This document shows positions 1 to 64,000 of a stretch of DNA of 64,000 nucleotides, piece by piece. Made by a program: the position numbers and the translations under genes. The stretch comes from a virus: positions 64,001 through 128,000 of IMG/VR virus record IMGVR_UViG_3300045988_172839; one strand, given 5' to 3'. The notes under the pieces are model-generated. The model had not been told where the DNA came from. It saw only the letters and a program-made list of their open reading frames with translations, and did not search any database. The stretch's first letter is position 1. Every line of letters begins with the position of its first letter.

Positions 1-856
1 TTAAACCATATAAATCCTCTACCAAAGTTCCAATTTGGTCTTCATTTAAGACTTGGATACGCTTGTAACTTGCGGTCATAAGTGCAGACATCAAAGCAGT
101 TACTTTATCCCAAAAGACCATAGGGTCTCCTGAACCGCGGAGTAAGAAATACTCATACGTCAACTGAGAACTACTTGAGTTATCTTCCCAATGATGGTAC
201 ATAGAAGACAGAACCTTTTGCATGGTTGGAGAAGACACCTCATTTAAGTGATTGTACAAGTCATCAAAACGCTCATCATAAGAGTTAGCTGCTTGCAAGT
301 CAATCAACTCTGGTACTACATTTAAAGCCGCACATTGATTATAAAAATTAGCCAACCCTTGACCATGTTGAAAGGCTTTCTCTTGAACTTTACCTACTTG
401 TGTCTTACGCACACAACGAATGAAAATACCGATACTACCATCTAACATATAGCAGACATAAGGTAAAGTCTCATCAATATCGTAGATACCGAAGAAGTGG
501 GAGAACAAGGAAGTGTCAGTCTTAGACTTCAACTCTTCCCTCAGTTTGAACTCCTTCTTAACCTTTCGCTCATTGAATACAAACAAGGAAATTAAACGAA
601 AAGGAAGTGGGAATAACAAGACCCACAAAAGAAGACTCACAAACCAATTCTTTACAATTACAGAAAGGACAATACACAATACAATGTAAAATCCAAAAAA
701 CAAGGCACTTTTACCTAGTCTTAAAATTCCACCACTAGCAACACCATAAGCACCCTCTGCCTCCGCAAAGTTTACTAAGTTTGTTACTGTTAATTTACCT
801 AATTGGGGTTTGACAAGCCAATACCCCTCTGAATAATCTCGCTTCGACTCAGCCAC
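1..856 (-). CDS. Polytopic membrane protein; 3' end runs off the left edge of the window
   Basis: The frame is open from GTG at 856-854 (overlapping the TAG of the upstream gene) down to position 2 with no stop. The translation VAESKRDYSEGYWLVKPQLG... contains long hydrophobic helices (LFFGFYIVLCIVLSVIV, FVSLLLWVLLFPLPF). It is absent from the ORF track because it is truncated. The start codon is uncertain. Confidence 0.5.
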   Translation of the reverse strand, partial: MAESKRDYSEGYWLVKPQLGKLTVTNLVNFAEAEGAYGVASGGILRLGKSALFFGFYIVLCIVLSVIVKNWFVSLLLWVLLFPLPFRLISLFVFNERKVKKEFKLREELKSKTDTSLFSHFFGIYDIDETLPYVCYMLDGSIGIFIRCVRKTQVGKVQEKAFQHGQGLANFYNQCAALNVVPELIDLQAANSYDERFDDLYNHLNEVSSPTMQKVLSSMYHHWEDNSSSSQLTYEYFLLRGSGDPMVFWDKVTALMSALMTASYKRIQVLNEDQIGTLVEDLYGL

Positions 857-1494
857 TATCTCAACCCCCCATGTTCAATATTCCAATAGGTCACTTTACC
901 TTCACTTACTGCTAACTCTACCGAAACCAAAGACTCTACGCGCGTTCCAATTTTGTTGGTTGCAGACACATCAAACAAAGCAAACCATTTGTCTAAACCC
1001 CCAGCACTATATACTCTCGATAGTGTTTTTAAATTTACAAGTCTATCTACACTTGGTGCGTAATCGTCCGGCCAAAAGAGTAAAGAATCTCCGACTTTTG
1101 GGGATACCCAAGGGAGAGATTTGTAAGCTCTTTCTGCACTTGCACTATCCTCAACCGAAGCTAAGTAAGTCATATAAGTCTTAGCTAGAGAATAGTCAAA
1201 ATTGTTATCTTTTGCTTTCCACTGACTTGTTGTTAAACTCAAGTGTTCTTTTGCAAAAGTTTCATCTGCGTAATTTGAAACAACTTCTTTTGCTGATTTT
1301 GCAACTTCTGTATCTCTCTGTAATTTAGCACCCTCATTATGAGACTGAATAATATTATTTGCAATAAAACCAAAGAACCCTAAAGTTACCAATACTGCAA
1401 GACCTATTAGTACATTTCTCTTTGCTTTACTCGATAGTCTGTAATCAAATAGGTGTAAGAACCATAAGACAACTTTCGATTTAATCTTCTTCAC
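856..1494 (-). CDS. Bitopic membrane protein (N-terminal TM anchor plus about 170 aa ectodomain)
   Basis: Track ORF 856..1503. AGGTGG lies 5 nt upstream of an in-frame GTG at 1494, so that start is preferred. The TM helix is VLIGLAVLVTLGFFGFIA. No catalytic motif was recognised. Confidence 0.6.
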   Translation of the reverse strand: MKKIKSKVVLWFLHLFDYRLSSKAKRNVLIGLAVLVTLGFFGFIANNIIQSHNEGAKLQRDTEVAKSAKEVVSNYADETFAKEHLSLTTSQWKAKDNNFDYSLAKTYMTYLASVEDSASAERAYKSLPWVSPKVGDSLLFWPDDYAPSVDRLVNLKTLSRVYSAGGLDKWFALFDVSATNKIGTRVESLVSVELAVSEGKVTYWNIEHGGLR

Positions 1495-2050
1495 TTGAAC
1501 CACCTACTTTTACAAAATTACCTAACGTGTAATCAACAACAGAACCCGTGGAATCGTAAACCACTGTTACTTGTCGATACCCTTCTACACCTCTTTTATA
1601 AACAGAGACTCTTTGTACCAGTTGGTTTGCTACAGAGTCGTAACTATACTGAATGGTTACTTTCTCTATAACACCTAGTAAGTTAGGGTAATGTTTTACC
1701 AAATCTGTCATATTGGTGTAAGAACCTTTATTCTCCAAAGTACCAAACTTCAAACTACTTGTGTTTTGTCCTTGAAAACCTTTACGACCTGTGTAAGTTG
1801 CAACCCAATTTATAATGTAATTCTCGAAAGGTTTCACTTGATTTTCTAATTCAATTTGCTCAGACCAAGCATTTTCATACTGAAGTTGACCTCTTGTTTT
1901 TTCCTCGGAGACTAAAGGAGCTAGTCGGCTCAAATCAAAAATTTGACCGTCTCCCGAATTTTGAAGAAAAAAGGTAGATACCGCTAGGCTAAGTAAAGTA
2001 GTTCCAACTAGAACACCACCATAAATACTAGCTTTCTTCCACTTCACCAT
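1481..2050 (-). CDS. Bitopic membrane protein (N-terminal TM anchor plus ectodomain)
   Basis: Track ORF 1481..2089. GGAGG lies 9 nt upstream of the ATG at 2050 (MVKWKKASIYGG...). The TM helix is GVLVGTTLLSLAVSTFF. It overlaps both neighbouring genes by a few codons. Confidence 0.6.
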   Translation of the reverse strand: MVKWKKASIYGGVLVGTTLLSLAVSTFFLQNSGDGQIFDLSRLAPLVSEEKTRGQLQYENAWSEQIELENQVKPFENYIINWVATYTGRKGFQGQNTSSLKFGTLENKGSYTNMTDLVKHYPNLLGVIEKVTIQYSYDSVANQLVQRVSVYKRGVEGYRQVTVVYDSTGSVVDYTLGNFVKVGGSSEED

Positions 2051-2255
2051 AAGGAAGAACCTCCGAGTCTTTCGTAGAACTGTAACCATCAGGCAGAATT
2101 TTGAACTTTAAATTATTCTCACAACGGACTAACAATACCCCCAGAGCCGTAACTAAAGAGACTGTTCCACCATAAATTACACCTTTGTGTTTAACACCTA
2201 CTTTGCTACCTACCACAAGCTTTGAAATCCAACCTTTACGAGAATCTTTAAACAT
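2028..2255 (-). CDS. Small (75 aa) membrane protein
   Basis: ATG ORF with one hydrophobic helix (VIYGGTVSLVTALGVLLV). It sits directly downstream of the promoter at 2294-2322. Confidence 0.5.
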   Translation of the reverse strand: MFKDSRKGWISKLVVGSKVGVKHKGVIYGGTVSLVTALGVLLVRCENNLKFKILPDGYSSTKDSEVLPYGEVEES

Positions 2256-2293
2256 GTTCCGTTTCCTATCACTTAAATTTACTTAATGGTTTT

Positions 2294-3068: not shown

Positions 3069-4781
3069 TTACTTTAAAATCGGGGTTTTTGTTTCATCAT
3101 AAGCAAACTCCATACCAAGACCTTGCCACTGCTCTTTACGGTAAATACGGTAATACCAAACATACTGCTCACCACGGTAATCCCAACCTGCTAAAGAAGT
3201 GTTTTGTTCGATTGTAAGCAATGTACCATCTTTAAATACAGTACAAACAATACCTGTGTGTCCCCAAGTTGGATGCTCCATATCTGAGAATATAGCACCA
3301 CGTCTAGGTGTATTAGTTGTCCGATTGCCGAAAATATTTGCCCAAGCCCCCGCTTGCAAAGCACCATGACCTTGAACACTTTCTTGAGGTCTACCCCAAA
3401 TATGGTTCCCTAAAGAAATAGTCAAAGCTACGCACTGACCGTTAATACTTGGGTCTGCTGGATATTGAAACCAACCTGTACCTGGTAAACCAAAATCCAT
3501 ACCGTAATTTTTAGGGTTAATAATGTAAGGCTTTAACCCCTCAGGTAAATCCTCTGGGCGCCAACCCCAAGAACTAAAGGCATCAGCCGGAGGGTTGTCT
3601 TGACCATCCTCTGAAGAAAGACCACTAGCATCAGATTTAGTTGAAGCCTTGGTTTTATGTTGCCTTGGTTTACATTTAATCTTCCTTATAGCTTTTGTTA
3701 CTAAGTTGTCACTACTAGAACCACGAGACTTAGTGACATCAAAGATACCGCGAGTAAGGAACTTGGAATATAAATCATAACCTTTGTCGTTCATGTGAAC
3801 GGAGTCAGAAGTTAAGTCCTCCCATTTAGAGTTTTCTTGAACGTACTGATTCCAATCTAGGTAAGCCATATTTGACTTGCTACTTACATAAGATTTAATA
3901 GTCTCTGCAATCTTATCATGGTCTACTTTGTTATAAGAACCTTGACCCCCTTGTGAAGCAGTTGTTACCCAAATAACTGTCTTAGCACTTTTCGCTTCAC
4001 CTACAAGTTTATCCATTAACTCATGTGTTGGAGGTTGGTTTGTACCTAGTGCTACAACAAGTACATCTTTAATTTTCTTCTCAGACTCCAATTTCTTGGC
4101 AGTCTCAATACCACTGAGTGTACTATCTGAACTCTCAAAGGCTCTTGAAACTTTACTATCAAAGGTCGATTTAGGGAAATACCCTTTTAATTTAGGTTCA
4201 ACCCCTACTCCTAAAGAGTCTCCAATGAAAGTAAAACCTTCATAATCCTTCGCCCAATCAGTTACTTCTGTAGATAAATCCACAGAACCTACATTCTGAA
4301 AGTTTGTGTTAGTTGAATTAGACCCTTGTGAAGTATTAACCTCAGTAGGTGCGCAATCAACCGTAGCCATAATTGCAACATAAGTAACCGCAGCGGAAGC
4401 TCCAATAGTTGCAATCATAAATGTCCAACCAAAGGAAACTAGAACAATAGAAGTTAATCTAGCTAACCAAGTTAAAAAACGATTAAAACCTAATGACGAA
4501 CGAAGAGTCAACAACTTTAAGCGCTCTTTTACTTCATTGGATGCCGTTTCCACTAAAACACTTTCAACTTTTTTCTTATCCTCATCTGTTAGGTCTTTTT
4601 TACTTACCTCTTCTTGTAACTCAACTCGACTCTTTTTCAATTCTTCTAAGTTTTGCTTTCGTCTTCTTATAGAGTTTTTAGCAAAATGACGATAGAATCG
4701 ACCAATTAAAGGATACAGAAGAGTTACTACTAAAACTATAATTGGCAATATTAAGAACCTTAACATTGGTTCAAAAAACAT
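3069..4781 (-). CDS. Membrane-anchored bifunctional cell-wall hydrolase: SGNH/GDSL esterase domain plus C-terminal CHAP peptidase domain
   Basis: GAGGT RBS before the ATG, and N-terminal TM helices. SGNH blocks are present: FIGDSLGVG (block I), LGTNQ (block III) and DSVHMN (block V, DxxH), at about nt 3747-4235. CHAP signature: NGQCVALT (Cys) ... WGHTGIV (His) ... IEQN, at about nt 3132-3479. Confidence 0.85.
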   Translation of the reverse strand: MFFEPMLRFLILPIIVLVVTLLYPLIGRFYRHFAKNSIRRRKQNLEELKKSRVELQEEVSKKDLTDEDKKKVESVLVETASNEVKERLKLLTLRSSLGFNRFLTWLARLTSIVLVSFGWTFMIATIGASAAVTYVAIMATVDCAPTEVNTSQGSNSTNTNFQNVGSVDLSTEVTDWAKDYEGFTFIGDSLGVGVEPKLKGYFPKSTFDSKVSRAFESSDSTLSGIETAKKLESEKKIKDVLVVALGTNQPPTHELMDKLVGEAKSAKTVIWVTTASQGGQGSYNKVDHDKIAETIKSYVSSKSNMAYLDWNQYVQENSKWEDLTSDSVHMNDKGYDLYSKFLTRGIFDVTKSRGSSSDNLVTKAIRKIKCKPRQHKTKASTKSDASGLSSEDGQDNPPADAFSSWGWRPEDLPEGLKPYIINPKNYGMDFGLPGTGWFQYPADPSINGQCVALTISLGNHIWGRPQESVQGHGALQAGAWANIFGNRTTNTPRRGAIFSDMEHPTWGHTGIVCTVFKDGTLLTIEQNTSLAGWDYRGEQYVWYYRIYRKEQWQGLGMEFAYDETKTPILK

Positions 4782-4897: not shown

Positions 4898-7447
4898 CTA
4901 CGCATCATTGTCTGATTTACTATCTTTCTTCATTTCCTTGTCCAAGGCATCAAACTTACTTTGAGTATCTACTTGACCAGAAGACCGTGCAGTTGGTTTA
5001 TCAAATAGACCTTCAAGTTCTTTAGCTACCTCAGTATCAGCTTGTTTAGAAGCCGAAGACTGTGTACGTTTAGAACTTCTGTTTCGCCCAAACATTCGCT
5101 TAAACCTAGAACCTGCACCACCCAAATTTCTCCTAGTAAAGTCTGATGCAGAACTTGTCGCATTACCTACAGCATCACGAACTCGACTATTTGAAGCACT
5201 AGATACCGAAGAATCTACCCCACTAGCAATATTCTTTACTTTCTCTAAGTTGCCAACAACTAAACTTGCAGCCATCTGTACACCGGCTTTCACTGGGATA
5301 GAAACAATACGAGCATTTCTATAAAGACCTTTAAACAAATTCGCTACTGCGACCCAATACAAAGCACAAGCAACTAAAGTAACTGCAATTAAAACCCCCA
5401 TAGTGGAACGTGGAGAATTAAAGGACTGACTCTCACCTAAACTGCCAGTTACAAGTTGGTTTCCACCATCACCCATAAGAATAGAAACAGTGAAGGCTAA
5501 CATAATGTTTACACCTAATACTAGTAAGAAAGGTAACATGCACTCAGTTGCAAAAGACTTAACTAATGTTTTATCTTGACGAATAAAGGATGCAAATACC
5601 GAGAGCATCATAGCAATAGGCAAGCAACACAGAATTAAAATCAAGAGAGTAGGAACCAAGTACACTACTACAAAGGAGTTGAACCACATCATGAAGAGTG
5701 TTACAAACCCATCTTTCTCAGCTACAATCTCATAAATGTCTGACTTCAAGGTTTGGTTATATACCAAACTCTCACCTGTCGCATTCTGTAAAATCATACG
5801 AAGGAAAGCGTCCCAACCAAAAGCTTTCAATTCAAAGCCTTGAGGTTCAAATACCACTTGACGTTGGTTGAACCCTGTTTGAGAAAAGATACGGTTGAAG
5901 TCGAAAGTCGCAATCATAGCACTTGCAGTATTCAATACTACATCATCAAGAGTGTAATAGTTCATAACATTTAACCAATCATTACGAACTTCTTTCGCTA
6001 CCTCTTGAAGTTTCTTCTCAACTTGTGTTAAATCAGACTCTTTCAAACCATAGTATAGCATTTCACTCTCTGAAAATACCATCGGACGAATAGTATAAGC
6101 AGCCGGGTTCATTGGCTCAGATACCACTTGCTTTTGACCTGCGTATTCAATCGTTTCAGGTTTTGCAATGTCTAACTCATACAAGTAATCTACCCAAGCA
6201 GTATAAGTTCTATAGGCGTTATCTGATGAGTAGTTGAACCAAGTCTTATAGTAAGCTTCAGACTCTTTATCCGTAATCGCATCAAGCTCTGTACGTTTTG
6301 TTCCATAACCTGCGTATGGTTTTGTACCGTAAGTATCACTCCACTGCAACAAGGTTTTGTTGGCTTCACGCAAGTAAGGAATAGTTACAGTAAATAGAGA
6401 ACCAAAGTCTAGGAAGTCTTTCATAGCTCCATAACCAGGTTTACCTGCTTCCATTTGGTAGTTGTAGAAGAATGAGTCATTTTTCTCTAACATCATCTTC
6501 TTAAACTCACCACTTGAACCTGCTTTAGTACTTAAACCATTATCGTAAAGCCCCCAAGACAAGTAATAGAATGGAGACTCTGTATAAAGAGCAAAAGCAG
6601 ACAACGACACCGCATCCTCTTGAGGAATTGCCTTTCCAGTTGTAGACTTGTTGGCTTTCGCCATTTGGTCTTGTAATGTCTCTTTGTGGTTATTGAAGTT
6701 TCGCTTAGACAGAATGAAGTAATCTTCATTCAAACCCACTTCATCTCCTACTTTCACTTGGCTCAAATCTTGTGTTGAAGTCTTTGCAATCGTATTTGAC
6801 GAAATCGGAGCGAAAATCCGTTTCATGGTTTTTGTATCAACTGAACCTGTTGAAGACGTTCCTTTACGGTCATTGATAAACCCAAGTTTAGAACGTTGTA
6901 ACAAAGTTTGATGGTTTGGTTTATCTGAACTCTCCAAACTCAAATACTCTTGCATAGAAGAGCGAATATCCGACGGAGTTACAGAGTTTGAAACATTTAA
7001 GGTCTTATCTGTTTGAGGGAACATAGTTGCAAGACCCTCAGACCATGAACCAATGTTAAATACAATCGCACCATTTGTTGAGATATTATCACCCATAATA
7101 TTCCCATAATACATACGAGAATAGTCGGCAATGTCGGGATACCCTCTGTACAGGTAATTTGTATCTAACCCTGTGTAATCTTCATTCGACAAACCATTGG
7201 AAAGCAAAGCCGAAGTCAAAGGAGAGTCAATCAAGTTCTTTCCACTTGCATCATTATCTTTTCTCTTCTCTCCGTTGTCTTTCTTCTTCTCTTTATCTTT
7301 CTTGTCTTTATCTTTATCCTTACTCTCCTCCGCATGAACAATGCTCGGACTAAGGACACTTAAACTGGATAGAAAGCTAGGAGCGATGAGTACCCCAAGG
7401 GATACCCCTACCAAAGTCCACTGCTTCATCTTTTTAGTTGTTATCAT
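4898..7447 (-). CDS. Large envelope protein (849 aa): signal peptide, K/D/E-rich linker, about 550 aa ectodomain, C-terminal multi-TM bundle and S/R/K-rich tail
   Basis: AGGAGG lies upstream of the ATG. The signal-like N-terminus is MKQWTLVGVSLGVLIAPSFLSSLSVLSPSIVHA. About 5 hydrophobic helices fall between residues 590-740. No enzymatic motif was recognised. Confidence 0.75.
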   Translation of the reverse strand: MITTKKMKQWTLVGVSLGVLIAPSFLSSLSVLSPSIVHAEESKDKDKDKKDKEKKKDNGEKRKDNDASGKNLIDSPLTSALLSNGLSNEDYTGLDTNYLYRGYPDIADYSRMYYGNIMGDNISTNGAIVFNIGSWSEGLATMFPQTDKTLNVSNSVTPSDIRSSMQEYLSLESSDKPNHQTLLQRSKLGFINDRKGTSSTGSVDTKTMKRIFAPISSNTIAKTSTQDLSQVKVGDEVGLNEDYFILSKRNFNNHKETLQDQMAKANKSTTGKAIPQEDAVSLSAFALYTESPFYYLSWGLYDNGLSTKAGSSGEFKKMMLEKNDSFFYNYQMEAGKPGYGAMKDFLDFGSLFTVTIPYLREANKTLLQWSDTYGTKPYAGYGTKRTELDAITDKESEAYYKTWFNYSSDNAYRTYTAWVDYLYELDIAKPETIEYAGQKQVVSEPMNPAAYTIRPMVFSESEMLYYGLKESDLTQVEKKLQEVAKEVRNDWLNVMNYYTLDDVVLNTASAMIATFDFNRIFSQTGFNQRQVVFEPQGFELKAFGWDAFLRMILQNATGESLVYNQTLKSDIYEIVAEKDGFVTLFMMWFNSFVVVYLVPTLLILILCCLPIAMMLSVFASFIRQDKTLVKSFATECMLPFLLVLGVNIMLAFTVSILMGDGGNQLVTGSLGESQSFNSPRSTMGVLIAVTLVACALYWVAVANLFKGLYRNARIVSIPVKAGVQMAASLVVGNLEKVKNIASGVDSSVSSASNSRVRDAVGNATSSASDFTRRNLGGAGSRFKRMFGRNRSSKRTQSSASKQADTEVAKELEGLFDKPTARSSGQVDTQSKFDALDKEMKKDSKSDNDA

Positions 7448-7462: not shown

Positions 7463-10400
7463 CTACTCACCTTGCTTTTTATCTTTGTTTGCTTCATCAA
7501 CACTATTTGAAGTGACTTGTTTTAAGTCACGTTTAACTTGTTGAATGTAACCATCTTTCTTAGGAGCCATCCAACGAACTTTAACCGATGCACCAAGAGT
7601 TTGTTGCCACTCATATACATCTGTTTCTCCTTCGTTTTCAGAACCACCCCAACCACCTTGTAGTTTCACTAGTAAGGCAGTGTAGTTGTCATAGTTCCCC
7701 GTTTCAGCAGCTTTTTGAAGTTGTGCTACCGAGTCAGAATAGTTTTGGTGTGTTGCCATAACCCAAAACATAAACTTATCTTTGAAGAAATAAGAATTTA
7801 TCTGATTAGTCAAATGAGTTGAAGCATCAATCATCTTAGGTGGACTGTACAAAAGATACCCAAAGGCTAAAATAGAAAGAACTGCTGGTACCACTCGGAT
7901 TTGACCTACGAATAAGAATACTAACATCAAGAAAGAAGCTACAATCAAAATAGTGACACCCCAAGAAGAGAACTTAGAATACAAGTAGTCTGTAAACTTA
8001 ATTTCATTCATCTTAGGTATAGTTGCAAAACCAGTTAACTCCAAGTAACGAGTTGTACCTGAGTAACTAGAAGCTGTGTTTGCACCCACCATATCTTGTA
8101 ATGAACTTAACATGGTTTGGTTCATAAAGGTTTTAGACCAACGTTGTTTGTACTCACGACCTTTAGTTGGGTTCAACATGAAGTAAGCCATATTTTTCAA
8201 TACATGATCTAAATCTTCCTCCTCACCCTCAGAAGCTGCCTTCAATGCATCTTCATCAATAACAGAAGAGTTATCTAAGTTAATAACATAAGGAATGTCT
8301 TTATTGAGAGGATTAGCACGAACAAGTACAGTTGAAGCGTATAAGTTGATAGCGTATTTTTTGTCAGCAGTATCTTTCGGAGCTTCACCTGCGGTATCAA
8401 CTAAAGCCCCTTTTGAACCTTGTCCCACCCAATACCCACTACTGTCTAAGCGAGAAGACTGTAATGGAATATCTTGAGCTTTACCTACTAATAAGGTACC
8501 GTTGTCACCTAACTTCTTGAACTTATCGTTACCACTTGCAAACCCCTTATCATCAAAACTAATAATCTCATCAATTACTGGTTTTGTAAGTGACATATTT
8601 GATTTAAATTTATAAGAGTCATCTGAGAAAGGTTTCGCGTTCATAGAAACCCATGCATCTGCACCAGGTACATTTTTAGTTAAGTCAAACATCGTTCTTG
8701 AATCCCCAAATACAGGGAAAAACCCAGTTAAATAACCTTGAGGTAATGCGTAATCAGTAGAACCTGAACGAATTTCAGAATAAGAAGAACCAAAATCATA
8801 ACCTTCAACATTTCCCCCACTGTGGAAAATAGAGCCATCCTTAGTCAAAGTTGCGGACTCATTACCGTTACGAACTAACCACTGAGTATTTAATGCACTT
8901 TGTAAGACTGCACCTAAATCGTTAAAGTTATAAAAGTCAATCGACCAACCCCAACCAGAAGTATCTGCTGACTCTTTTCCTGCTACTACGGAATCATTTG
9001 CAATAGCCGAGTAAAATCGCAATTTACGGTCAACAGAACCACCTAAAGTTGCATTTGATCCGTCAACTGAAAGATACCCCTTTCCTTTAAGGAGAGCTAA
9101 GTTATTAAGGTTGTTAATCGAAATCTGACGACCCACACCCGTATTCGTGTTGTTATAAATCTCAGACATCTTCTCGTCTACACTAGAACTTTTAATATCA
9201 ACCTTTTTATCTTTCTCTTTATTGGAATTTTTGTTGGAATCTTTGTTCTTGTTATTCTCTTTGTCATTACTGGATGCAGTTGAACTATTTGTTGTATCGT
9301 TTATCTTCTTAGCATACATCATAGGGTTTTGCGAAGCTGGAATCACAACATAAGCACCTCTTTGATTTGAACCTGTTTCTGAAATTAAATTACCAAAACC
9401 ATCAGTATACATACCTGCTGAGTAGATAGAGCTATCATAGAACGGTTTCAAAGAACCTTGGTTCTTTGTTTTCATAGCAGCCGGTAAAGCACCACGTTCC
9501 TCATAATCAAACCCGTTTAAGTAAGCATTCAATTTCTCAGCTAAATGTCTATCATTTGACTTTAACAAGTCTACAACCTTACTATCTGACCCGTCTAAAG
9601 TCAAAACATTAGAACCCCAACTCTTAGAGGCATCAACTGAAGCAAAGTTTGTATAGAACGTAGCTTGGGATACCGTAGGGGTACCACTAGGGTCTGGATT
9701 CCACTCATAGACAATTTCTTGTCGTTTTAAGTCAGACTCTTTAGCTTTACTTTCCCTAACTAACCCTAATAAAGTACCTTTATCTACATTATACTCATAA
9801 CGATTTTTAAGAGAAACTTCATCATCTGTGGTTAATAACGACTTAGACCATAACCCTACAGAACCAAATAACACTTCAAAGTAAGTAGCTTTTGTTTGTA
9901 ATGACTTCCAAGTTTGACCATTATCATCTGACTTAGCTAAGTACAAAGGTTCAGATGTTTTAGCTCCTAAATTAGCAACAAGCTTCGCTAATTCACCCGC
10001 CGGATCATCAGCTAAACCAGCATGAGTTTTTAAAATGGTTTGAATGTCAGATTGTGCATCACCTACTGTATTTCCATTTATAGAGACACGTGTCGTAAAC
10101 GGAGAATACCAGTTAGAGATAAAGAACCCTACTGTTTTAACCTCTGCCGGGGAGAGTCCTTTTGCACCACCGGATAAAGAACCATCAGCTTCACCTGCTG
10201 CAATCTTTAATTGGTCAATAGAACGCTCTAAGGCAGAACTTTTCTGACCTTGTTTATTCTCAGCATAAGCAGTAGTATAGTCAACTTTTAAACCTAAAAC
10301 TGAACTCCCAACTTGTAAAGCAACTGAACCTAAAAGTAAGGACACCGAAGCTAAAGTGACAGTCTTACCTACAAAACTTCTAACTTTCTTTCTTCTACCC

Positions 10401-10624
10401 TCAACTGCTACTTGCTCCAAGGTCATCGGAACAAACTGACTCGTTGATTTTCTTTTATCTACCGATTTTCCTCCAAAGAATAAAATCGAATTCTCACGCA
10501 ACGAGTCTACAAAACGTGAGAACTTGTTTGTTTCCTTTAATTTAACTTGCTTATCTTTAATCTTCTTCTTTCCGAACATGAATTTAAAGATTCCTTTCTT
10601 GAAAAAAGAAACCTCAGTACCCAA
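7463..10624 (-). CDS. Large envelope protein (1053 aa): N-terminal TM anchor, about 800 aa ectodomain with an N/K/D/S-rich insert, two C-terminal TM helices
   Basis: Long ORF. TTG at 10624 with GGGAG 11 nt upstream; an internal ATG alternative exists. TM helices: VTLASVSLLLGSVALQVG, and WGVTILIVASFLMLVFLFVG / VVPAVLSILAFGYLLY. No Walker motif. Confidence 0.75.
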   Translation of the reverse strand: MGTEVSFFKKGIFKFMFGKKKIKDKQVKLKETNKFSRFVDSLRENSILFFGGKSVDKRKSTSQFVPMTLEQVAVEGRRKKVRSFVGKTVTLASVSLLLGSVALQVGSSVLGLKVDYTTAYAENKQGQKSSALERSIDQLKIAAGEADGSLSGGAKGLSPAEVKTVGFFISNWYSPFTTRVSINGNTVGDAQSDIQTILKTHAGLADDPAGELAKLVANLGAKTSEPLYLAKSDDNGQTWKSLQTKATYFEVLFGSVGLWSKSLLTTDDEVSLKNRYEYNVDKGTLLGLVRESKAKESDLKRQEIVYEWNPDPSGTPTVSQATFYTNFASVDASKSWGSNVLTLDGSDSKVVDLLKSNDRHLAEKLNAYLNGFDYEERGALPAAMKTKNQGSLKPFYDSSIYSAGMYTDGFGNLISETGSNQRGAYVVIPASQNPMMYAKKINDTTNSSTASSNDKENNKNKDSNKNSNKEKDKKVDIKSSSVDEKMSEIYNNTNTGVGRQISINNLNNLALLKGKGYLSVDGSNATLGGSVDRKLRFYSAIANDSVVAGKESADTSGWGWSIDFYNFNDLGAVLQSALNTQWLVRNGNESATLTKDGSIFHSGGNVEGYDFGSSYSEIRSGSTDYALPQGYLTGFFPVFGDSRTMFDLTKNVPGADAWVSMNAKPFSDDSYKFKSNMSLTKPVIDEIISFDDKGFASGNDKFKKLGDNGTLLVGKAQDIPLQSSRLDSSGYWVGQGSKGALVDTAGEAPKDTADKKYAINLYASTVLVRANPLNKDIPYVINLDNSSVIDEDALKAASEGEEEDLDHVLKNMAYFMLNPTKGREYKQRWSKTFMNQTMLSSLQDMVGANTASSYSGTTRYLELTGFATIPKMNEIKFTDYLYSKFSSWGVTILIVASFLMLVFLFVGQIRVVPAVLSILAFGYLLYSPPKMIDASTHLTNQINSYFFKDKFMFWVMATHQNYSDSVAQLQKAAETGNYDNYTALLVKLQGGWGGSENEGETDVYEWQQTLGASVKVRWMAPKKDGYIQQVKRDLKQVTSNSVDEANKDKKQGE

Positions 10625-10692
10625 CGATACCGAGGCTCCCTAGTTGCTTGCAATGAAACTTACCTATCAACGATAAGCTCCAAGAAAACAAC

Positions 10693-12653: not shown

Positions 12654-13376
12654 TCAACTAAAATAGTGTAAGATAGAAATCCCTCCTAAATCCAACAAGA
12701 CCAAAGCTAACATACCATATTGTATGATAGACAAAGCTTTTCGTATCGCCATTTCCCACTCCGAACCTGTTTTGAAGGTTGAGATACCGGGCACCAAACG
12801 AATAGTTGTGAACATAGGAATGTTTGGAAAGAATATTTTGATGAAAACACCAAGAGCGAATCGGATTCCTTCCGTAGTTAACATATCTAACACTAAATGG
12901 GAAATAACCCCAAGTCCAAACCCTGTGACTATTAGTAACCATAACAGAGGGTCAAAACGTCCTGTAAATCCTAAGAAAGTTGGACTGAACATCAACCACA
13001 ATATCATGAGAAGTGTAAACTCACTATGTGTTTGCCACGAGCGATGGATACACCTCATGAATTTCAAAGTTTTATACAGAACAGAGCTTTTCTTCTGTTT
13101 GCTACTTAATCTCTCATCTAGCTTCTTGTAAGGTGTGTTTGCAATATGCAAGACCTTATTTTGTAACCAAGAAGCCGGGTCTTTTAATGGACTCGAATCC
13201 CAATGGTGGTCGTTATCCGACCACATACCACCATAAATCCCCGCTGTGTAAATGACCAAGAACTGTAACGCTGGAGAAATCAAATCACTTTGTATTAAAT
13301 AACCTGAGTCTTTCAAGGTTATGAACCCAGCCATTGCACACACCGTACCACCTAATCTGTGAGTTTTACCCTCCAT
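12654..13376 (-). CDS. Membrane-bound metal-dependent hydrolase, YdjM/DUF457-like
   Basis: It starts MEGKTHRLGG and contains WSDNDHHWDS plus several TM helices. That pattern matches DUF457-family proteins as I recall them. Not checked by search. Confidence 0.55.
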   Translation of the reverse strand: MEGKTHRLGGTVCAMAGFITLKDSGYLIQSDLISPALQFLVIYTAGIYGGMWSDNDHHWDSSPLKDPASWLQNKVLHIANTPYKKLDERLSSKQKKSSVLYKTLKFMRCIHRSWQTHSEFTLLMILWLMFSPTFLGFTGRFDPLLWLLIVTGFGLGVISHLVLDMLTTEGIRFALGVFIKIFFPNIPMFTTIRLVPGISTFKTGSEWEMAIRKALSIIQYGMLALVLLDLGGISILHYFS

Positions 13377-13379: not shown

Positions 13380-13862
13380 TTACTTCCCCACTAATTCTTT
13401 AAAGTCTTTGGTACAAACCAAACGAACTTGTACTCCTACCTGTTTCTTAAGTGTTAAAACTGCTGAACCTACTTTTACCTTATTCCAAGACCTTGTGGCG
13501 CTTGGGTTAAAGGAAATTAAGTTAATGTAGGATACCGCTGAACCACTCGCAACTTCTTGATAAGTCAACTCTTGAAACTTTTGCAGTACCGATTGTACAA
13601 CAGTTAGTGACAAGCCCAAGGACTCGCTCACTCGTTTTAACAAATAAGTCTGAGGTAGCACTTTCCGAGCTTGGTCTTTTGAAACAGTTACTTTCATAAA
13701 TAACCCTTCGAACACATCAAAGGAATACCCTTTAGTAATCGCTTCAAAGCAAACTTCTCTATAGTATGAAACAATGTTGTCTACGGTTTCATACTTCAAA
13801 TGAACTAATTTACTTACTTCTTTTATAACCTCTACATAAGGCAACCGAGCCTTTGTACTCAT
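13380..13862 (-). CDS. Hypothetical protein (160 aa)
   Basis: ATG ORF with GAGGT 9 nt upstream. It is tightly packed, with its stop 3 nt before the next start. No secure motif. Confidence 0.65.
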   Translation of the reverse strand: MSTKARLPYVEVIKEVSKLVHLKYETVDNIVSYYREVCFEAITKGYSFDVFEGLFMKVTVSKDQARKVLPQTYLLKRVSESLGLSLTVVQSVLQKFQELTYQEVASGSAVSYINLISFNPSATRSWNKVKVGSAVLTLKKQVGVQVRLVCTKDFKELVGK

Positions 13863-21780: not shown

Positions 21781-21811
21781 GAGATAAATAGATACCCTCC
21801 TGACTTTTTTC

Positions 21812-33730: not shown

Positions 33731-33761
33731 ACAAAAAGAAAAGGCATCCGAAGTGGATACC
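33731..33761 (-). terminator. Rho-independent terminator
   Basis: On the minus strand: GGTATCC, loop ACTTC, GGATGCC (one G-U pair), then TTTTCTTTTTGT. The stem contains the GGTATC motif. Confidence 0.65.
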
Positions 33762-48842: not shown

Positions 48843-48871
48843 CTAAAAAGCACCCAACCGAAGTTGGATAC
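48843..48871 (-). terminator. Rho-independent terminator
   Basis: On the minus strand: GTATCCAAC, loop TTCG, GTTGGGTGC (two G-U pairs), then TTTTTAG. The stem is closely similar to the terminator at 33731-33761. Confidence 0.6.
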
Positions 48872-48880
48872 CTTTACCTA

Positions 48881-51980: not shown

Positions 51981-54900
51981 TTATAAACCAACCATATAAT
52001 CGCTATCTTCCATAGCTTCAACTTGACCGAGAAGATACCCATTCCCAACTTGCGAGAAGAAATCATGGTTGGAAGTACCCGTTGAAATACCATTCATAAT
52101 GATAGGGTTAACATCATCTGCTGAATCTGGGAAGAGTGGATCTTGTCCTAGGTTCATAAGAGCCTTATTGGCATTGTAACGAAGGAAAGTCTTCACTTCT
52201 TCTGTCCAACCAATTTCATCATATAACTCTTCTGTGTACCTCTCCTCATTTTCATACAGAGTGTAGAGCAAGTCGTACATCCACGCTTTTAATTCTTCTT
52301 GTTCTTCCTCAGATAGCTCATTAAAAGCGAGTTGGAACTTATAGCCAATATAAGTACCGTGAACACTATTTCCAGTTATAACTACAGAGCCACTTTGACT
52401 ACGAGTTACCAAATACCCTGAAGGAACTTGGATACCGTAAATCTGCTCACCTTCAAGCTCAGTTCGTGTCACCGCAGCACCATAACTAGTGGAACCATTA
52501 GGTAAAATAGTTAAAGAATAATTAACAAGACCCTCTGCACTAAATGGTGAACGATCTTCAAACTCTCTAATACGAGTTTTATAACCAATTAAACTACACA
52601 AGGCTTGCACATAATCTATACTCTCTTTATTTATAGAGCAATATCTATAAGAGTTATCACTACATTTAGCACCTACCCAATCAAACAGTGTTTCCAAATA
52701 TTGTAAGCACCATTTAAAGTCTACTTCATTCAAAGGGCGTTTAGGTAAAGACTTCAACTTACTCTCTTCGATACCGAATTGGTTAAATTTAGAAATACGG
52801 AGTACAGTTCCATTTCCTTCGGGATAAGAATATTCCTTGTAAGTTATATCTAAAGACTCCAACAAATCTTTCATCTTTGCAATAATCTCTGGTTTACTAC
52901 TGCTCAATACCAGATGTTTACTTAAAGCACTTTCTACTACCGTTCCAAATTTAGACAAACAAATATATAAATCTTCCCATTTAGATAAAGGTTCTACCTT
53001 AGAGTTTGGAGATAAAACCTCAGTAGGATGCAACCAATAAGAGCTACTACCTAAAGTTAAATCCGCTGGCCGAGTAATCAATTTATCACTAGTCAAAGCT
53101 TTACGAATAAGTCTGTGATTAGGTGTACATTTTAAATCAACATAACCAAGTTTAGACTTAAACTGATAAATCTTAGGTGCAAAATCCGTTGAAATCGTAG
53201 AAACTGGTGCAAAATTCGTTCTGCGAGTTTCTTTATCAAACTGCAAGACCAAGTCTTGTGGGCGAATATCGGCTACGGATACCCAACCTTTAGGTGTTAG
53301 CACCTCTTGGTCTTTTGTCATGCACTCATCTCGAATAATAAGCTTAATAATCTCAGCCACATTAGGGAGTTTGTTGTTTCCTAAGTACCATAAAGGTGTA
53401 AAGAAACCAGAGTAGAAAAGGAAAGACTCTAGGAAGACACTTGCTACTTTCTTTTGAAGTGGGGTTCCATTGTCATAAACCTCTTTGATAATCTCTGCTT
53501 TCTTCTGCAAATATGGGTTGTTGGCAGTCCACTCAAAAATTTCTTCAATCTCAGACTTGGTGTTCAATGTGGAGAATATTGAGGAGTAGGACTTGGCGTG
53601 GACACAGTTGCCTGAGATAATAGTTTTTCGACCTGCAGATACCACTAGAAACTGCGAGGGAACTTCAACACCATAGACTTCTTCACCTTCCAGTTTCTCA
53701 AACGATAAACTTTGAAGTTGGACATCACGTTGATTTTCAGATGATAAAATACGAACATAGTAATTATCACTATACTTTTCAGATCTATCATCTATGTTTA
53801 CACCTGAGTTATGAGTATAACCTGCTAAAGTGCTAAGAACTTTAACAAAATTCGCGTTTTCAATTTCTTTTGTATAATAAGAAATATAACCTCTTGAACC
53901 ATCTTCATTATAGTGAACATGAGAGTCCCATAAAGAAAGCTCTTCAATAAATTGCTGTGCTTTCTCTGCATTGAAATCAGAAAAAGAGAACCAATTATTT
54001 AACACTTTAGGTTTTAAGTTCAAAGAACCTAACATTGTAAAAGGTACAAATACATTAAAGTTCCTTTGTGGTTTACATTTACCTGAACCTAGTTTACCGT
54101 TAATTTCCTTATAAGATATACCCGAATCTTCGCATAACTTTAATAATTTTGCTATCTTGGGCTCTTTAGAAAAACTAAACCGAATAGTAAAAGTTTCAGT
54201 TTTTAAACGAGGATCCTTATCTCGATATTGTTGAATCCGTTTAATTTCCCTCTCAGTAATAGACCCATCTGCTTGGAAAGCAATCAATAACTTCTCAAAA
54301 GGAGTTAAAAGGGAAACTGAAGTTTGTGTAACAAAAGGTCTCACTAAAGGTACGCGTCGATAAGCAGTTTTAGGAAGTTTCACAAAATCCTCAGCAGTTA
54401 CAACTCCGTATTTATAAGACTTCCATGCATCTAATGGAGAACCGGATTTTAAAGAAGTCTCTTCAAAAAGCATGCGGTGTCCGGGAGATACCCTTAAATC
54501 TACTGCTGAATTATATATCCGCTCAATATGAGGTGCTTTGTGTTTAGATGTTTTTATAACCTTTTCAAACCTTGTAGTTTCTGTCTTTGGGTCATAAGCC
54601 AAAATAGTATCACCTTCAACAATATCCGCAATCGGAACCCAACCTCTATCAATCGTTAGAAGTTTATGGTCTTTCGTATAGCACTCCATAAACTCAATAT
54701 TGTTTAACACTGCTTCTTCATGCTGTGTACGAACATCTGGTTTAATTGCGGATACCCCGTCAACCGACTGCAACGTATCTAACAAGGTCAACCCACCAAA
54801 GACTTTAACTACTAAATCTCTTTCTTTTTCAGGCAACTTGCGCCAATCATCTAAATCATTAGACAAAGGAATACGAGTATCTAACCAAAATTGTTCAGTT

Positions 54901-55013
54901 AGTTTTTCCCAAGTTGCTTTATCAACTACGTCCTCAATGGCGTTCCAATTTATCGCCTTGTAAAAATCTGGTTCTTGTGTCAAATCCTTCTCACTTTCTA
55001 ATCGTAATCTCAT
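51981..55013 (-). CDS. nrdF: Class Ib ribonucleotide reductase beta subunit (NrdF) precursor containing two inteins
   Basis: The extein sequence is typical of NrdF: INWN, FWLDTRIPLSNDLDDW, VFGGLTLLDTLQ, HEEAVLNNIEFME / VHAKSYSSIF, FLESFLFYSGFF, IRDE / SVHGTYIGYKF. Removing residues 111-469 and 564-882 leaves a 332 aa protein of normal NrdF length. Confidence 0.9.
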   Translation of the reverse strand: MRLRLESEKDLTQEPDFYKAINWNAIEDVVDKATWEKLTEQFWLDTRIPLSNDLDDWRKLPEKERDLVVKVFGGLTLLDTLQSVDGVSAIKPDVRTQHEEAVLNNIEFMECYTKDHKLLTIDRGWVPIADIVEGDTILAYDPKTETTRFEKVIKTSKHKAPHIERIYNSAVDLRVSPGHRMLFEETSLKSGSPLDAWKSYKYGVVTAEDFVKLPKTAYRRVPLVRPFVTQTSVSLLTPFEKLLIAFQADGSITEREIKRIQQYRDKDPRLKTETFTIRFSFSKEPKIAKLLKLCEDSGISYKEINGKLGSGKCKPQRNFNVFVPFTMLGSLNLKPKVLNNWFSFSDFNAEKAQQFIEELSLWDSHVHYNEDGSRGYISYYTKEIENANFVKVLSTLAGYTHNSGVNIDDRSEKYSDNYYVRILSSENQRDVQLQSLSFEKLEGEEVYGVEVPSQFLVVSAGRKTIISGNCVHAKSYSSIFSTLNTKSEIEEIFEWTANNPYLQKKAEIIKEVYDNGTPLQKKVASVFLESFLFYSGFFTPLWYLGNNKLPNVAEIIKLIIRDECMTKDQEVLTPKGWVSVADIRPQDLVLQFDKETRRTNFAPVSTISTDFAPKIYQFKSKLGYVDLKCTPNHRLIRKALTSDKLITRPADLTLGSSSYWLHPTEVLSPNSKVEPLSKWEDLYICLSKFGTVVESALSKHLVLSSSKPEIIAKMKDLLESLDITYKEYSYPEGNGTVLRISKFNQFGIEESKLKSLPKRPLNEVDFKWCLQYLETLFDWVGAKCSDNSYRYCSINKESIDYVQALCSLIGYKTRIREFEDRSPFSAEGLVNYSLTILPNGSTSYGAAVTRTELEGEQIYGIQVPSGYLVTRSQSGSVVITGNSVHGTYIGYKFQLAFNELSEEEQEELKAWMYDLLYTLYENEERYTEELYDEIGWTEEVKTFLRYNANKALMNLGQDPLFPDSADDVNPIIMNGISTGTSNHDFFSQVGNGYLLGQVEAMEDSDYMVGL
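52368..53324 (-). mobile_element. Intein 2 (319 aa) in nrdF, with degenerate LAGLIDADG-type endonuclease insert
   Basis: It starts with Cys right after IRDE (CMTKDQEVLTPKGWVSVADI), has block B KCTPNHRL, and ends VVITGN followed by +1 Ser (SVHG). The central region has LAGLIDADG-like remnants (YLETLFDWVG). Confidence 0.8.
53607..54683 (-). mobile_element. Intein 1 (359 aa) in nrdF, with LAGLIDADG-type homing endonuclease domain
   Basis: It starts with Cys right after FME (CYTKDHKLLTIDRGWVPIADI), has block B VSPGHRM, endonuclease motifs LLIAFQADGS and ELSLWDS, and ends TIISGN followed by +1 Cys (CVHAKSY). Confidence 0.8.
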
Positions 55014-59771: not shown

Positions 59772-59799
59772 ATTGCAACCCTCATTCCTAATTTTCTTT

Positions 59800-62216: not shown

Positions 62217-62243
62217 ACAATCCTCTTCTGATTTATTTTCTTT

Positions 62244-62272
62244 ATTATAACAAAATAAAGTTATTTTGTCAA
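62244..62272 (-). promoter_or_regulatory. Consensus sigma-A promoter
   Basis: On the minus strand: TTGACA (62272-62267), a 17 bp spacer, then TATAAT (62249-62244). Confidence 0.8.
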
Positions 62273-62298
62273 ATAAAAAGTAAGATTTGACCTTACTT
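62271..62298 (-). terminator. Rho-independent terminator
   Basis: On the minus strand: AAGTAAG, loop GTCAAAT, CTTACTT, then TTTATTTGACA. The T tract runs into the -35. Confidence 0.65.
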
Positions 62299-62306
62299 TC
62301 TCTTAC

Positions 62307-62597
62307 TTATTCTAAAGTAGGTACAAGCTCAACATAGAAGTTTCCTTTAAATGAATTACTATCTTCTACTGTGTATTTAAAGTAATTCTTATCTTTTCTA
62401 TTCCAAAAAGCGTTTTGCAAACGCAATAGCAAGTCAAAATGATCTACAGAGTCTACATACTCAGGAAATTGCTGTAATGTAAGGTCTAATAAAACTCTAG
62501 GAACAGAAGAAGTAGAGGATACCACACCTAAAACATCATGAGACCACAAATTCAAATGTAGGTCTGTTAACTTTTCTAAACTAATTACATAAACCAT
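62307..62597 (-). CDS. Hypothetical protein (96 aa)
   Basis: AAAGGA RBS before the ATG, with a 3 nt gap after the methyltransferase stop. Confidence 0.6.
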   Translation of the reverse strand: MVYVISLEKLTDLHLNLWSHDVLGVVSSTSSVPRVLLDLTLQQFPEYVDSVDHFDLLLRLQNAFWNRKDKNYFKYTVEDSNSFKGNFYVELVPTLE

Positions 62598-62600
62598 AGC

Positions 62601-63719
62601 TTATCCTTTCTCTACTAAAGCTTTTACAATAGCCGCAATAACTGGTGGGCTTACAGAATTACCTACTTGCTTATACATCTGATTCCTACTTGTACCGCAC
62701 TCTTGGATGTTCTTCACAAACTCAAGTGGATACCCTTGTGCTAGGAAACACTCAACCTCAGTTAATTTCCTTACTCTTAAACCTAAATCATCAGATAACA
62801 TAATTCGAGGAGAATCTTGACGAGCAGTAATCGTAGGAGCTAAACCTTTTACTGAGTGGACTCTACGATATTGCTCTAAGTTTTTATGTACTTCCCTAGG
62901 TAACAACCCTAAACGTAAAATCGAGTTAGTTCTAGGTAAAGTCAAACCAAATTCAAAATCCTTTAAATAAAGCCTATCTTCTGGTTTAGTTATTTGATAA
63001 TGCGTATCGTCTACAAAAGGCTCCACTATATCTTCCAAAACAGATGTAGTATCACTAGGTTTTAAAGAATTAAACATATTAAAACTTGGAAACAGAGGTT
63101 CTGTTAAGTTTGCTAATGTAACAGAACTTAACTCCTTTTTCAACTTGTTAATACGAGAAGACCACTTATCTTCCTCATACAAAGAACTCTCACCTTTATA
63201 GATACCACAAATAAAGGTTCTTTCTCTAATTTGAGGAACACCAAAATCCTTAGAGTTTAAAACTGTAAAGTCTATCACATAATCTAATTCAGCTAAAGAA
63301 TCTAAAATAACTCTGAAAGTCTTACCATTATCATGACTGACTAAGTTCTTTACATTCTCTAAAAGGAAGTATTTTGGTCGCTTTTCTTTTAAGATACATA
63401 AGACATCAAAGAATAACGTACCCCTAGTGTCTTCAAAACCTTTTCGTTGACCTGCAATCGAAAAAGCTTGACAAGGAAAACCATCAACCAATAAGTCATG
63501 GTCTGGTATATCTCTTTCATCAACTTTAGTTATATCTCCAATTAAGACACTACTATCAAAATTTGCACCATAAGATTGTTGTGCAAATTTATCAATTTCT
63601 GAAGCAAAGACAACCTTATGTGGAATATTTGCTAAACGCAACCCCTCTTCAAAACCACCGATACCACTAAATAAGGAAACTACTCTTAATTCACTCAATT
63701 TATATCTCTTCACTAGCAA
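62601..63719 (-). CDS. dcm: DNA (cytosine-5)-methyltransferase
   Basis: The canonical C5-MTase motifs are present: I LFSGIGGF, IV GFPCQAFSIAG, VI ENVKNL, VIII QIRERTF and X GNSVSPPV. The start is uncertain: TTG at 63719, or TTG at 63698, which has a better RBS. Confidence 0.9.
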   Translation of the reverse strand: MLVKRYKLSELRVVSLFSGIGGFEEGLRLANIPHKVVFASEIDKFAQQSYGANFDSSVLIGDITKVDERDIPDHDLLVDGFPCQAFSIAGQRKGFEDTRGTLFFDVLCILKEKRPKYFLLENVKNLVSHDNGKTFRVILDSLAELDYVIDFTVLNSKDFGVPQIRERTFICGIYKGESSLYEEDKWSSRINKLKKELSSVTLANLTEPLFPSFNMFNSLKPSDTTSVLEDIVEPFVDDTHYQITKPEDRLYLKDFEFGLTLPRTNSILRLGLLPREVHKNLEQYRRVHSVKGLAPTITARQDSPRIMLSDDLGLRVRKLTEVECFLAQGYPLEFVKNIQECGTSRNQMYKQVGNSVSPPVIAAIVKALVEKG

Positions 63720-64000
63720 CTAAAGTCATAGGCTAAAAATTTACCAGTCATCAACGGAATGTAAACCGTACCGTTGTAGTTATCGTCAAAACCTGTTTGG
63801 TAGACAAAATAAGATACCGAAGGTGGGTTTTGCTCTACAAAGTTAACCACTGTATCAATCTTGGAAACTATACGGTAGTTTCTACAATTCTCTATAAAAC
63901 CACAAGAATAGTCAGTAAATAAAGCACCTACTAATCGGTTCACATATTCATACAAAACAGAACAATCACTATAAACCTTACTTGAAGTCTTATCTGTTAA
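63713..64000 (-). CDS. Hypothetical protein; 5' end probably beyond the right edge of the window
   Basis: The frame is open from the window edge to the TAG at 63713. The track ORF starts at an internal TTG (63955). Confidence 0.45.
   Translation of the reverse strand, partial: LTDKTSSKVYSDCSVLYEYVNRLVGALFTDYSCGFIENCRNYRIVSKIDTVVNFVEQNPPSVSYFVYQTGFDDNYNGTVYIPLMTGKFLAYDFSC

Follow-up and report, generated by a model that had tools for sequence, protein, structure and literature searches.

The GGTATC array of the window

The DNA analysed here is a stretch of 64,000 bp (positions 64,001 to 128,000) of the IMG/VR record IMGVR_UViG_3300045988_172839, referred to below as the window and numbered from its first letter. 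At 100% identity it matches a contig of 238.7 kb derived from a human oral metagenome (k127_74389 of ENA ERZ989710) as well as a Logan contig, and about 20 relatives of 86-284 kb are present in IMG/VR. A contig of 240,176 bp wraps round, with a 780-bp overlap (93% identity) between its two ends, which run collinear with an uninterrupted contig. The minus strand holds all 64 called coding sequences (CDS), which take up 92.5% of the window (Table 1). Along this strand the hexamer GGTATC recurs as a signal that selection maintains at the DNA level, on one strand of a plasmid-like element of about 240 kb from oral streptococci.

An exact count gives 116 copies of GGTATC on the sense strand (read as GATACC on the plus strand) and 4 in the reverse orientation, at 8393, 21905, 55575 and 62109. 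The strand ratio is 29:1 and GGTATC ranks first of all window hexamers in strand skew, on a G-rich, gene-sense strand where many words are skewed. The array had been noticed by eye in an earlier reading of the same letters (the original prediction), which put the numbers at about 112 and 4. The effect proved to be stronger than claimed; the four reverse copies lie exactly where they had been placed and all 16 example coordinates are in the exact list. Markov models of order 1-3 predict 7.5-24.7 copies. Within-gene shuffling of synonymous codons leaves 22.6±4.3 copies in the CDS (maximum 37 in 1000 shuffles) against the 111 found, an excess of about 20 standard deviations (sd) which upholds the earlier proposal of selection on a polar motif at the DNA or RNA level. 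The reverse orientation is not depleted, with 4 copies found and 5.9 expected from the shuffles.

The word is not the trace of one codon pair, as had been maintained from the start: its coding copies are spread over the three reading frames (37, 23 and 51) and 5 further copies are non-coding. The base on its 5' side is C in 52 copies, G in 44, T in 17 and A in 3, in agreement with the C or G seen by eye at about 95 of 112 sites, and the base on its 3' side is C in 52 copies and T in 34. The extended consensus is W-D-S-GGTATC-Y. CGGTATC accounts for 52 copies and AGCGGTATC for 14, the latter being the extended AGCGG-embedding sites whose number had been estimated at about 14. The recurring Ala-Val-Ser tripeptide reported earlier is made in frame by the motif 17 times, and codon usage is distorted to the point that motif copies contain 27% of the ATC codons and 25% of the TCC codons of the window. 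The statement that the word is none of the Chi sequences or FtsK-orienting polar sequences (KOPS) known from Firmicutes also holds, as AGCGG, GCGCGTG and GAAGCGG occur 28/13, 0/0 and 2/0 times, respectively (paired counts are given as sense/reverse throughout).

The copies are, in addition, set at even distances: gaps average 551 bp and have a coefficient of variation (CV) of 0.50, the lowest CV obtained in 10,000 random placements being 0.73. Only 6 gaps are shorter than 200 bp, against 35 expected, and the longest gap measures 1458 bp, against a mean maximum of 2915 bp in random placements. The copies are sparser, about 0.9 kb apart, across the antigen I/II adhesin gene.

The non-coding copies are listed in Table 1 and include those for which an earlier assignment to a 5' untranslated region (UTR) or to terminator stems was borne out. 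The stems holding the copies at 33756 and 48867 are 7 bp each; the possibility that such motif-bearing terminator hairpins form a repeated family was considered and rejected, no repeated family being found. A conserved promoter-like repeat family was observed at 19158-19203, 37214-37352, 51914-51960, 59791-59836 and 62235-62280. In the sense orientation it reads TTGAC(A/T)-N12-TTTTGnTA(T/C)AAT, equivalent to a -35 box and an extended -10 box. A search for this pattern across contigs matched one site per contig.

Table 1. Motif copies and genes of the window, with coordinates, strand and distinguishing properties
Feature	Coordinates	Strand	Remarks
GGTATC array	1..64000	-	116 copies by exact count; tested with shuffles
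Motif copy outside called CDS	485..490	-	Near the truncated left end of the window
GDSL lipase/CHAP cell-wall hydrolase	3069..4781	-	Type known from Gram-positive conjugation modules
849-aa protein	4898..7447	-	No Pfam match; best family marker; 39% identical to part of a 1834-aa pXO16 protein (E 4e-151)
1053-aa protein	7463..10624	-	Homologue of the same giant 1834-aa pXO16 protein
Reverse-orientation motif copy	8393..8398	+	One of four
Non-coding motif copy	10626..10631	-	5' UTR-like short spacer upstream of the 1053-aa gene
YdjM-family membrane hydrolase	12654..13376	-	50% identical to its pXO16 homologue
HU-like DNA-binding protein	13380..13862	-	
DnaX/clamp-loader-like AAA+ ATPase	16275..17591	-	34% identical to a pXO16 'AAA family ATPase'
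Non-coding motif copy	21791..21796	-	Stop codon on one side, promoter-like TTGACT...TATACT on the other
Non-coding motif copy	33756..33761	-	5' arm of terminator-like hairpin GGTATCC-ACTTC-GGATGCC, followed by a T run
Antigen I/II adhesin	37462..43713	-	2083 aa; LPXTG anchor; five diverged 531-bp tandem repeats (38103-40746)
Non-coding motif copy	48867..48872	-	Within terminator-like hairpin GGTATCCAACTTCGGTTGGGTGC, followed by a T run
Ribonucleotide reductase small subunit	51981..55013	-	1010 aa; three matched stretches split by intein-like Hint/LAGLIDADG segments
Orphan C5 cytosine DNA methyltransferase	62601..63719	-	

Relationship to plasmid pXO16 and probable affinity to the Inocles

The core of the element is collinear and homologous with that of pXO16, a 350-kb conjugative plasmid of Bacillus thuringiensis sv. 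israelensis. It spans window positions 856-33637 and the flanks, corresponds to 200-237 kb of pXO16 (NC_018516) and comprises the 849-aa and 1053-aa proteins, YdjM, the clamp-loader-like AAA+ ATPase, an FtsK-like ATPase, a SNF2/DEAD helicase, a DnaB-like helicase, a CHC2 zinc-finger protein and a ParB_N-HNH protein. pXO16 was the sole match among 72,556 plasmids and no phage matched. A scan of genome contigs by alignment of the clamp loader gave only generic DnaX genes (cyanobacteria, Pelagibacter), with no polar word. The single gene orientation of the window extends over about 120 kb of the 240-kb relative, as no switch was seen across that half of contig 3300007997_000004 (from 155.6k to 240.2k and on to 35.5k). 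According to the pXO16 review, all CDS of this plasmid likewise share one orientation, DNA is transferred in single-stranded form, the plasmid transfers itself by conjugation, and plasmids lacking oriT as well as chromosomal DNA are mobilised by it (PMC6199540). Conjugative self-transfer is known for pXO16 only.

The element is probably Inocle-like. The Inocles are described as giant elements of oral Streptococcus (PMC12340149; Kiguchi et al. 2025), and the traits held in common are a human oral origin and a Streptococcus-like gene content (LPXTG proteins, NrdH, replication genes). The same paper gives as their marker InoC, a protein of about 454 aa with a Replic_Relax domain (PF13814), and reports that the orientation of open reading frames (ORFs) switches at the GC-skew origin and terminus (PMC12340149). 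InoC was not found among the scanned proteins of the window and its flanks, which represent about 120 kb or about half of the element. The element resembles both pXO16 and the Inocles as a giant (240-400 kb) Firmicute element with mostly unknown genes and an orientation common to genes over long stretches; it further shares the syntenic core with the former and the oral metagenome source with the latter. In the accessible text of the Inocle paper pXO16 is mentioned 0 times (PMC12340149), and a polar motif is mentioned neither there nor in the accessible text of the pXO16 review (PMC6199540). No literature on the words or on a pXO16 motif was found, the primary pXO16 papers (Plasmid 2015; Environ Microbiol 2018) lying outside the searched text.

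A drifting word conserved across the family

The corresponding word of pXO16 is GGGGTA (consensus W-GGGGTA-K), which occurs 658 times in sense and 5 times in antisense over all 350 kb, a ratio of 132:1. Each 10-kb bin contains 13-26 copies all round the circle, and the gap averages 531 bp (CV 0.71, longest 2071 bp). The CDS hold 500 copies against 119±9 in synonymous shuffles, an excess of about 40 sd, and the top octamer is AGGGGTAG (232/0). Copies are uniform along the genes and independent of gene boundaries. Non-coding DNA represents 12% of pXO16 but holds 24% of the copies; 69 of the 143 intergenic copies end 3-9 nt before a start codon and double as Shine-Dalgarno sequences. An ORF-free stretch of 4.4 kb (40088-44524) carries GGGGTA at normal density, with 8 copies in sense and 0 in antisense. 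This stretch, which adjoins the Toprim gene and has neither an annotated gene nor a sense ORF of at least 70 aa, might serve as an origin region or give rise to a long non-coding transcript.

More distant relatives likewise retain a polar word. Oral variants with proteins 55-65% identical keep GGTATC (53/2 in L073, 42/3 in L093 and 38/0 in a third), Bacillus-type relatives keep GGGGTA (37/0 in L161, 31/0 in L163), and two further IMG/VR giants display GGGTAT (35/1 in L196) and GGGGTA (48/1 in L197). GGGTA and GGGTAT are polar in every family member examined. The word thus drifts through GGGGTAK, GGGGTAT, GGGTAT and SGGTATC while GGTA stays constant, and its period remains within about 0.35-0.65 kb across the family and close to 530-550 bp in both the Bacillus and the Streptococcus elements. 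Between orthologues with 63-65% protein identity, about half of the sites keep the same position and most of the lost ones are replaced within 150 nt; at 40% identity no site keeps its position and 4-5 of 5 have a neighbouring copy. Since sites are lost yet replaced nearby, what selection maintains is their density and spacing and not any individual site. The polar GGTA-core word is therefore a heritable, selected trait of the whole pXO16/Inocle-like superfamily. This drifting family trait, the even spacing and the kinship with pXO16 are new with respect to the original prediction.

A preference of the host at large, raised at the outset as the finding that would speak against selection on the element, was not observed in the plasmid and prophage DNA compared. 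In 50 kb of co-directional genes of pBtic235, which resides with pXO16 in one B. thuringiensis strain, GGGGTA occurs 7/0 times, against 95/2 in pXO16. A Streptococcus prophage/integrative and conjugative element (ICE) control contains GGTATC 15 times in sense and 13 times in antisense per 49 kb, and unrelated phage contigs have no comparable polar word. In the other mobile DNA of these hosts the motif is lacking, and its reader is therefore probably encoded by the elements themselves.

A separate family of giant contigs (L165-L171; IMG/VR, 214-295 kb) is not homologous to the window and carries a stand-alone CHC2 gene. Its GC content is 32% in L165 and 45-46% in L166-L171. The polar hexamer of these contigs is GTTTAT, with 46-58 copies versus 6-10 per 20 kb, in all frames, a gap CV of 0.55-0.93 (0.55-0.70 in L166-L171) and 44-48 copies found against 22±3.6 in shuffles.

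A candidate function in primase initiation

Any explanation has to cover a word confined to one strand, the G-rich sense strand, a conserved ruler of about 0.5 kb, the tolerance of reverse copies, the specificity for the element and a slow, co-inherited drift. The motif is a polar architecture word of a known kind that stands apart from all described examples by its density, its regularity and its restriction to the element, and the functions considered below are candidates. The one we favour, with a probability that we place somewhat below even, is that the copies are hard-wired sites at which a primase starts, both on the lagging-strand template and on the strand that is transferred.

The reader would be the element's own primase of the DnaG/T7 type, made up of a stand-alone CHC2 zinc-finger protein, a Toprim protein and a DnaB-like helicase. 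The G-rich motif strand is presumed to be the lagging-strand template, along which a helicase-primase of the DnaB type would travel 5'->3'. The trinucleotide recognised may be 5'-GTA-3' with a cryptic A, by analogy with the T7 site (5'-GGGTC-3', cryptic 3' C, primer pppACCC) and that of Firmicute DnaG (5'-CTA-3'), and the predicted primers are pppACC(S) in the oral element and pppACCCC in pXO16. Selection would write a site every half kilobase or so and in this way keep Okazaki fragments short. Such a short length would need selection because a G-rich site of 6-7 nt occurs by chance only every 3-8 kb in DNA of 33-37% GC. In pXO16 the same sites could prime synthesis of the complementary strand on the single strand entering the recipient.

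The gene content is consistent with this proposal. In pXO16 there are genes for a CHC2 zinc-finger protein (WP_000365721), a Toprim protein (WP_000389279), a DnaB-like helicase (WP_001162832), a polymerase, a ligase and a gyrase. The oral family has a DnaB-like helicase and a stand-alone Zn_ribbon_DnaG protein of 210 aa, in the same order as in pXO16; the latter protein has an intact CPFH...CFGC motif and, among PDB entries, is closest to the DnaG primases 2AU3 and 1D0Q. The oral zinc-finger gene was located by synteny, as broad scans were swamped by ordinary phage primases. Primase sites consist of a trinucleotide with a cryptic 3' base and their specificity is attributed to the zinc-binding domain; known examples are GTC for T7 (extended GGGTC), GTT for T4, CTA for S. 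aureus and (G/C)GGA for AtTwinkle (PMC5737085). A site centred on GTA agrees with these rules. Like the known sites (those of T7 being 5'-GGGTC, TGGTC and GTGTC), which are read on a single-stranded template by a CHC2 zinc-binding domain, the window word is short and G-rich on the 5' side of a T-containing trinucleotide, and the likeness extends to the genes, with CHC2, Toprim and DnaB-like proteins in pXO16 and the zinc-finger and DnaB-like proteins in the oral element. The lack of depletion of the reverse orientation agrees with the proposal because unused sites on the other strand are expected under it; even spacing together with indifference to reverse copies is what the proposal would lead one to expect. 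The different polar and even hexamer, GTTTAT, of a third lineage with a related stand-alone zinc-finger gene also counts in its favour.

A broader and more speculative version, possible in our estimation though doubtful, is a private 'primer code' common to the superfamily. A word of 6-7 nt, placed about 0.5 kb apart on one strand, would have as its reader the stand-alone zinc-finger subunit of the element's own primase. Synthesis of the lagging strand, and of the second strand once a single strand has been transferred, would thereby be hard-wired and limited to self DNA, and word and reader would co-evolve (GGGGTA to GGGTAT to GGTATC, with GTTTAT in the third lineage).

Several points weigh against a role in priming. 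The proposed link between motif and priming is built on gene content and sequence. Known primase sites measure 3-5 nt and are frequent enough by chance, whereas the window word has 6-7 nt, exceeds expectation about five-fold, is confined to one strand and is regular. The sites of the T7 primase have none of these properties in the T7 genome, where 161 are found on the top and 159 on the bottom strand with a CV of 0.92 and no excess. The co-occurrence of zinc finger and motif is phylogenetic and holds equally for the FtsK-like ATPase, the ParB_N-HNH nuclease, the SNF2 helicase and the methyltransferases. The giant contig L164 has a related zinc-finger gene and no obvious polar word. The direction of replication is deduced from GC skew, which gene orientation alone could create, and the motif strand is also the mRNA-sense, non-template strand, so that readings linked to transcription may apply. 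Finally, the Toprim partner is seen in pXO16 and was not located in the oral element, about half of which was read.

Were the primase proposal true, it would be, to our knowledge, the first case of a primase specificity that visibly reshapes the coding sequence of its genome. Whatever the reader, the footprint is unusually clean for any genome, near-regular and almost exclusively in sense over the 350 kb of pXO16 (658 versus 5), in elements whose biology is almost wholly obscure. Earlier polar words, Chi and KOPS, revealed chromosome repair and segregation. The motif ties the recently described giant oral elements to the experimentally tractable pXO16, supplies a simple sequence signature for spotting members of the superfamily in metagenomes and offers a directly testable handle on the replication or transfer of these elements.

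Alternative mechanisms

A first alternative, which we regard as unlikely, is a signal of the ops type on the non-template strand: an elongation factor would be recruited, or RNA polymerase paused, at GGTA words for processivity over long co-directional arrays. The motif always lies on the non-template, sense strand of co-directional genes. The ops element of E. coli, GGCGGTAGCGTG, exposes a loop G4-G5-T6-A7 to RfaH, of which only G5 and T6 are read specifically (PMC5995543). This GGTA loop is identical to the core of the motif; many window copies read GCGGTA, and the commonest octamer of pXO16 is the one given above. Regulators of the RfaH type are reported to drive plasmid conjugation operons (PMC11880322). 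However, no NusG/RfaH-like protein (NGN/KOW) is present in the PGAP annotation of pXO16 or among the approximately 60 window and flank proteins scanned against Pfam. The closing pair C3:G8 of ops has no counterpart, the flanks S...T and G...K not being complementary. Known ops sites occur once per operon leader and not every 550 bp, which contrasts with the hundreds of copies found here. Promoter-like repeats and terminator-like hairpins make the transcription units of the window look ordinary in size, and an even spacing regardless of gene boundaries is not predicted by such a signal.

A Chi-like word would attenuate a helicase-nuclease, either the host AddAB/RexAB or an enzyme of the element, from one side, and would shield the replicon or its rolling-circle or transfer intermediates. 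We give this little credence. Chi is polar, co-oriented with replication and over-represented in E. coli (GCTGGTGG), B. subtilis (AGCGG) and L. lactis (GCGCGTG), on the leading, G-rich strand; short Chi words reach one copy per few hundred bp, and the AGCGG of B. subtilis is comparable in density to the motif. A minimal distance between break and site would also, by inference, favour even spacing. The motif nevertheless differs in being specific to the element: it is not common to other DNA of the same hosts, as indicated by pBtic235 and by the Streptococcus prophage/ICE. Its sequence is unrelated to any known Firmicute Chi, none of which is enriched in the window or in pXO16, and the GGTA core is common to Bacillus and Streptococcus elements despite the different Chi words of their hosts. 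No AddAB-like pair was identified on the elements, and the reverse orientation is not avoided.

An equally small chance is given to a guide for the FtsK/SpoIIIE-like conjugative ATPase or another translocase, which would load or orient DNA pumping during transfer or segregation as KOPS, the SpoIIIE recognition sequences (SRS) and the Streptomyces TraB sites do. These are likewise polar G-rich words and the element encodes an FtsK-family ATPase: a protein of about 830 aa with an FtsK_SpoIIIE domain is found in the conserved conjugation module, in pXO16 as well as just past the left end of the window. Polarity is uniform round all of pXO16. Known guides, however, are 8-mers at intervals of at least several kb, about 12 kb in the case of E. 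coli KOPS. The window motif, a hexamer and not an octamer, is some 5-25 times denser. The 833-aa protein has PF01580 only and no KOPS-reading FtsK gamma domain at E<0.01. Reverse copies are not avoided, and a fast translocase gives no obvious reason for a ruler of 0.5 kb. The mobilisation by pXO16 of oriT-less and chromosomal DNA suggests a loose recognition of the substrate, in favour of a guide, but the plasmid is reported to transfer single-stranded DNA (PMC6199540), for which the nick sets the direction.

It is improbable that the motif is a strand-specific site of nicking or modification, comparable to the single-strand interruptions of phage T5 DNA, although gene content makes the conserved ParB_N-HNH nuclease and the orphan methyltransferases candidate enzymes, one of which would mark one strand every 0.5 kb. 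The ParB_N-HNH protein adjoins replication genes in each of the two family branches, the right end of the window and the DNA upstream of it encode three orphan methyltransferases, and the asymmetry of the site is shared with type IIS and type III systems. Targets of restriction and modification are, on the other hand, usually avoided and not enriched; the even spacing is left unexplained, and the methyltransferase sets of pXO16 and the oral element differ while the motif core is common to both.

DNA uptake sequences occur in roughly equal numbers on both strands. The strand ratios of 29:1 in the window and 132:1 in pXO16 set the motif apart from them. Lastly, a by-product of codon usage, dipeptide preference or purine skew, which the G-rich strand common to all window genes with its many skewed words and the 65% of coding pXO16 copies in the frame GGG GTA might have suggested, is practically ruled out by counts some 20 sd (window) and 40 sd (pXO16) beyond the synonymous shuffles, by copies in all frames and in ORF-free DNA, by the even spacing and by the fact that co-directional genes on other replicons of these hosts lack the motif.

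Additional genes and related contigs

The majority of the element's proteins are without a Pfam family; a NrdH-like glutaredoxin is among those assigned. A 37-bp piece of the adhesin gene is 97% identical to 'agglutinin receptor' genes in prophage/ICE records of Streptococcus gallolyticus and S. suis. A kinship with the Streptococcus 'phages' phi-Sga/Ssu_rum was considered and rejected, since the adhesin fragment is the sole match and the records are unrelated composites of prophage and ICE. The plasmid-like IMG/VR contigs L078-L096 (86-284 kb) are catalogued as viral, and no capsid or terminase gene was seen among the regions read.

Two N6/N4 methyltransferases are encoded just upstream of the window (L136, 7999-9601), in a row with the C5 enzyme, which brings the orphan methyltransferases to three. 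Further upstream of them, genes for DHFR, RNase H, DUF3310 and Fic proteins complete a block devoted to anti-restriction and nucleotide metabolism. The DHFR region of the element is found at 81% identity in the metagenome contig L336 (BNJT01000212.1), where the motif count is 37/0; with 477,247 bp, this contig exceeds every element size seen elsewhere. A DHFR homologue with 54% identity is present in a 2.2-Mb contig (L352, BNJV01002897.1). The loci profiled for the motif were L338-L345, with a DHFR of 56-58% identity, and did not include L352; they show no motif excess.

An IS607-like unit, made up of a serine recombinase and a TnpB/Cas12f-like protein, lies just past the left end of the window (L097, 13956-15861; L074, 20897-22520). 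It is present in some variants and not in others and is co-oriented with the genes. As it contains 2 motif copies in 1.9 kb, which is the normal density, its use as a motif-free 'foreign' control was rejected. The sole gene seen on the opposite strand in the family is situated at a contig end (L308, 14622-16928; IMG/VR 3300008664_000005) and encodes a 768-aa protein resembling N6-adenine methyltransferases, with an NPPY motif. It carries no copy of the motif in either orientation, its GC skew is reversed, and it is probably a recent insertion.

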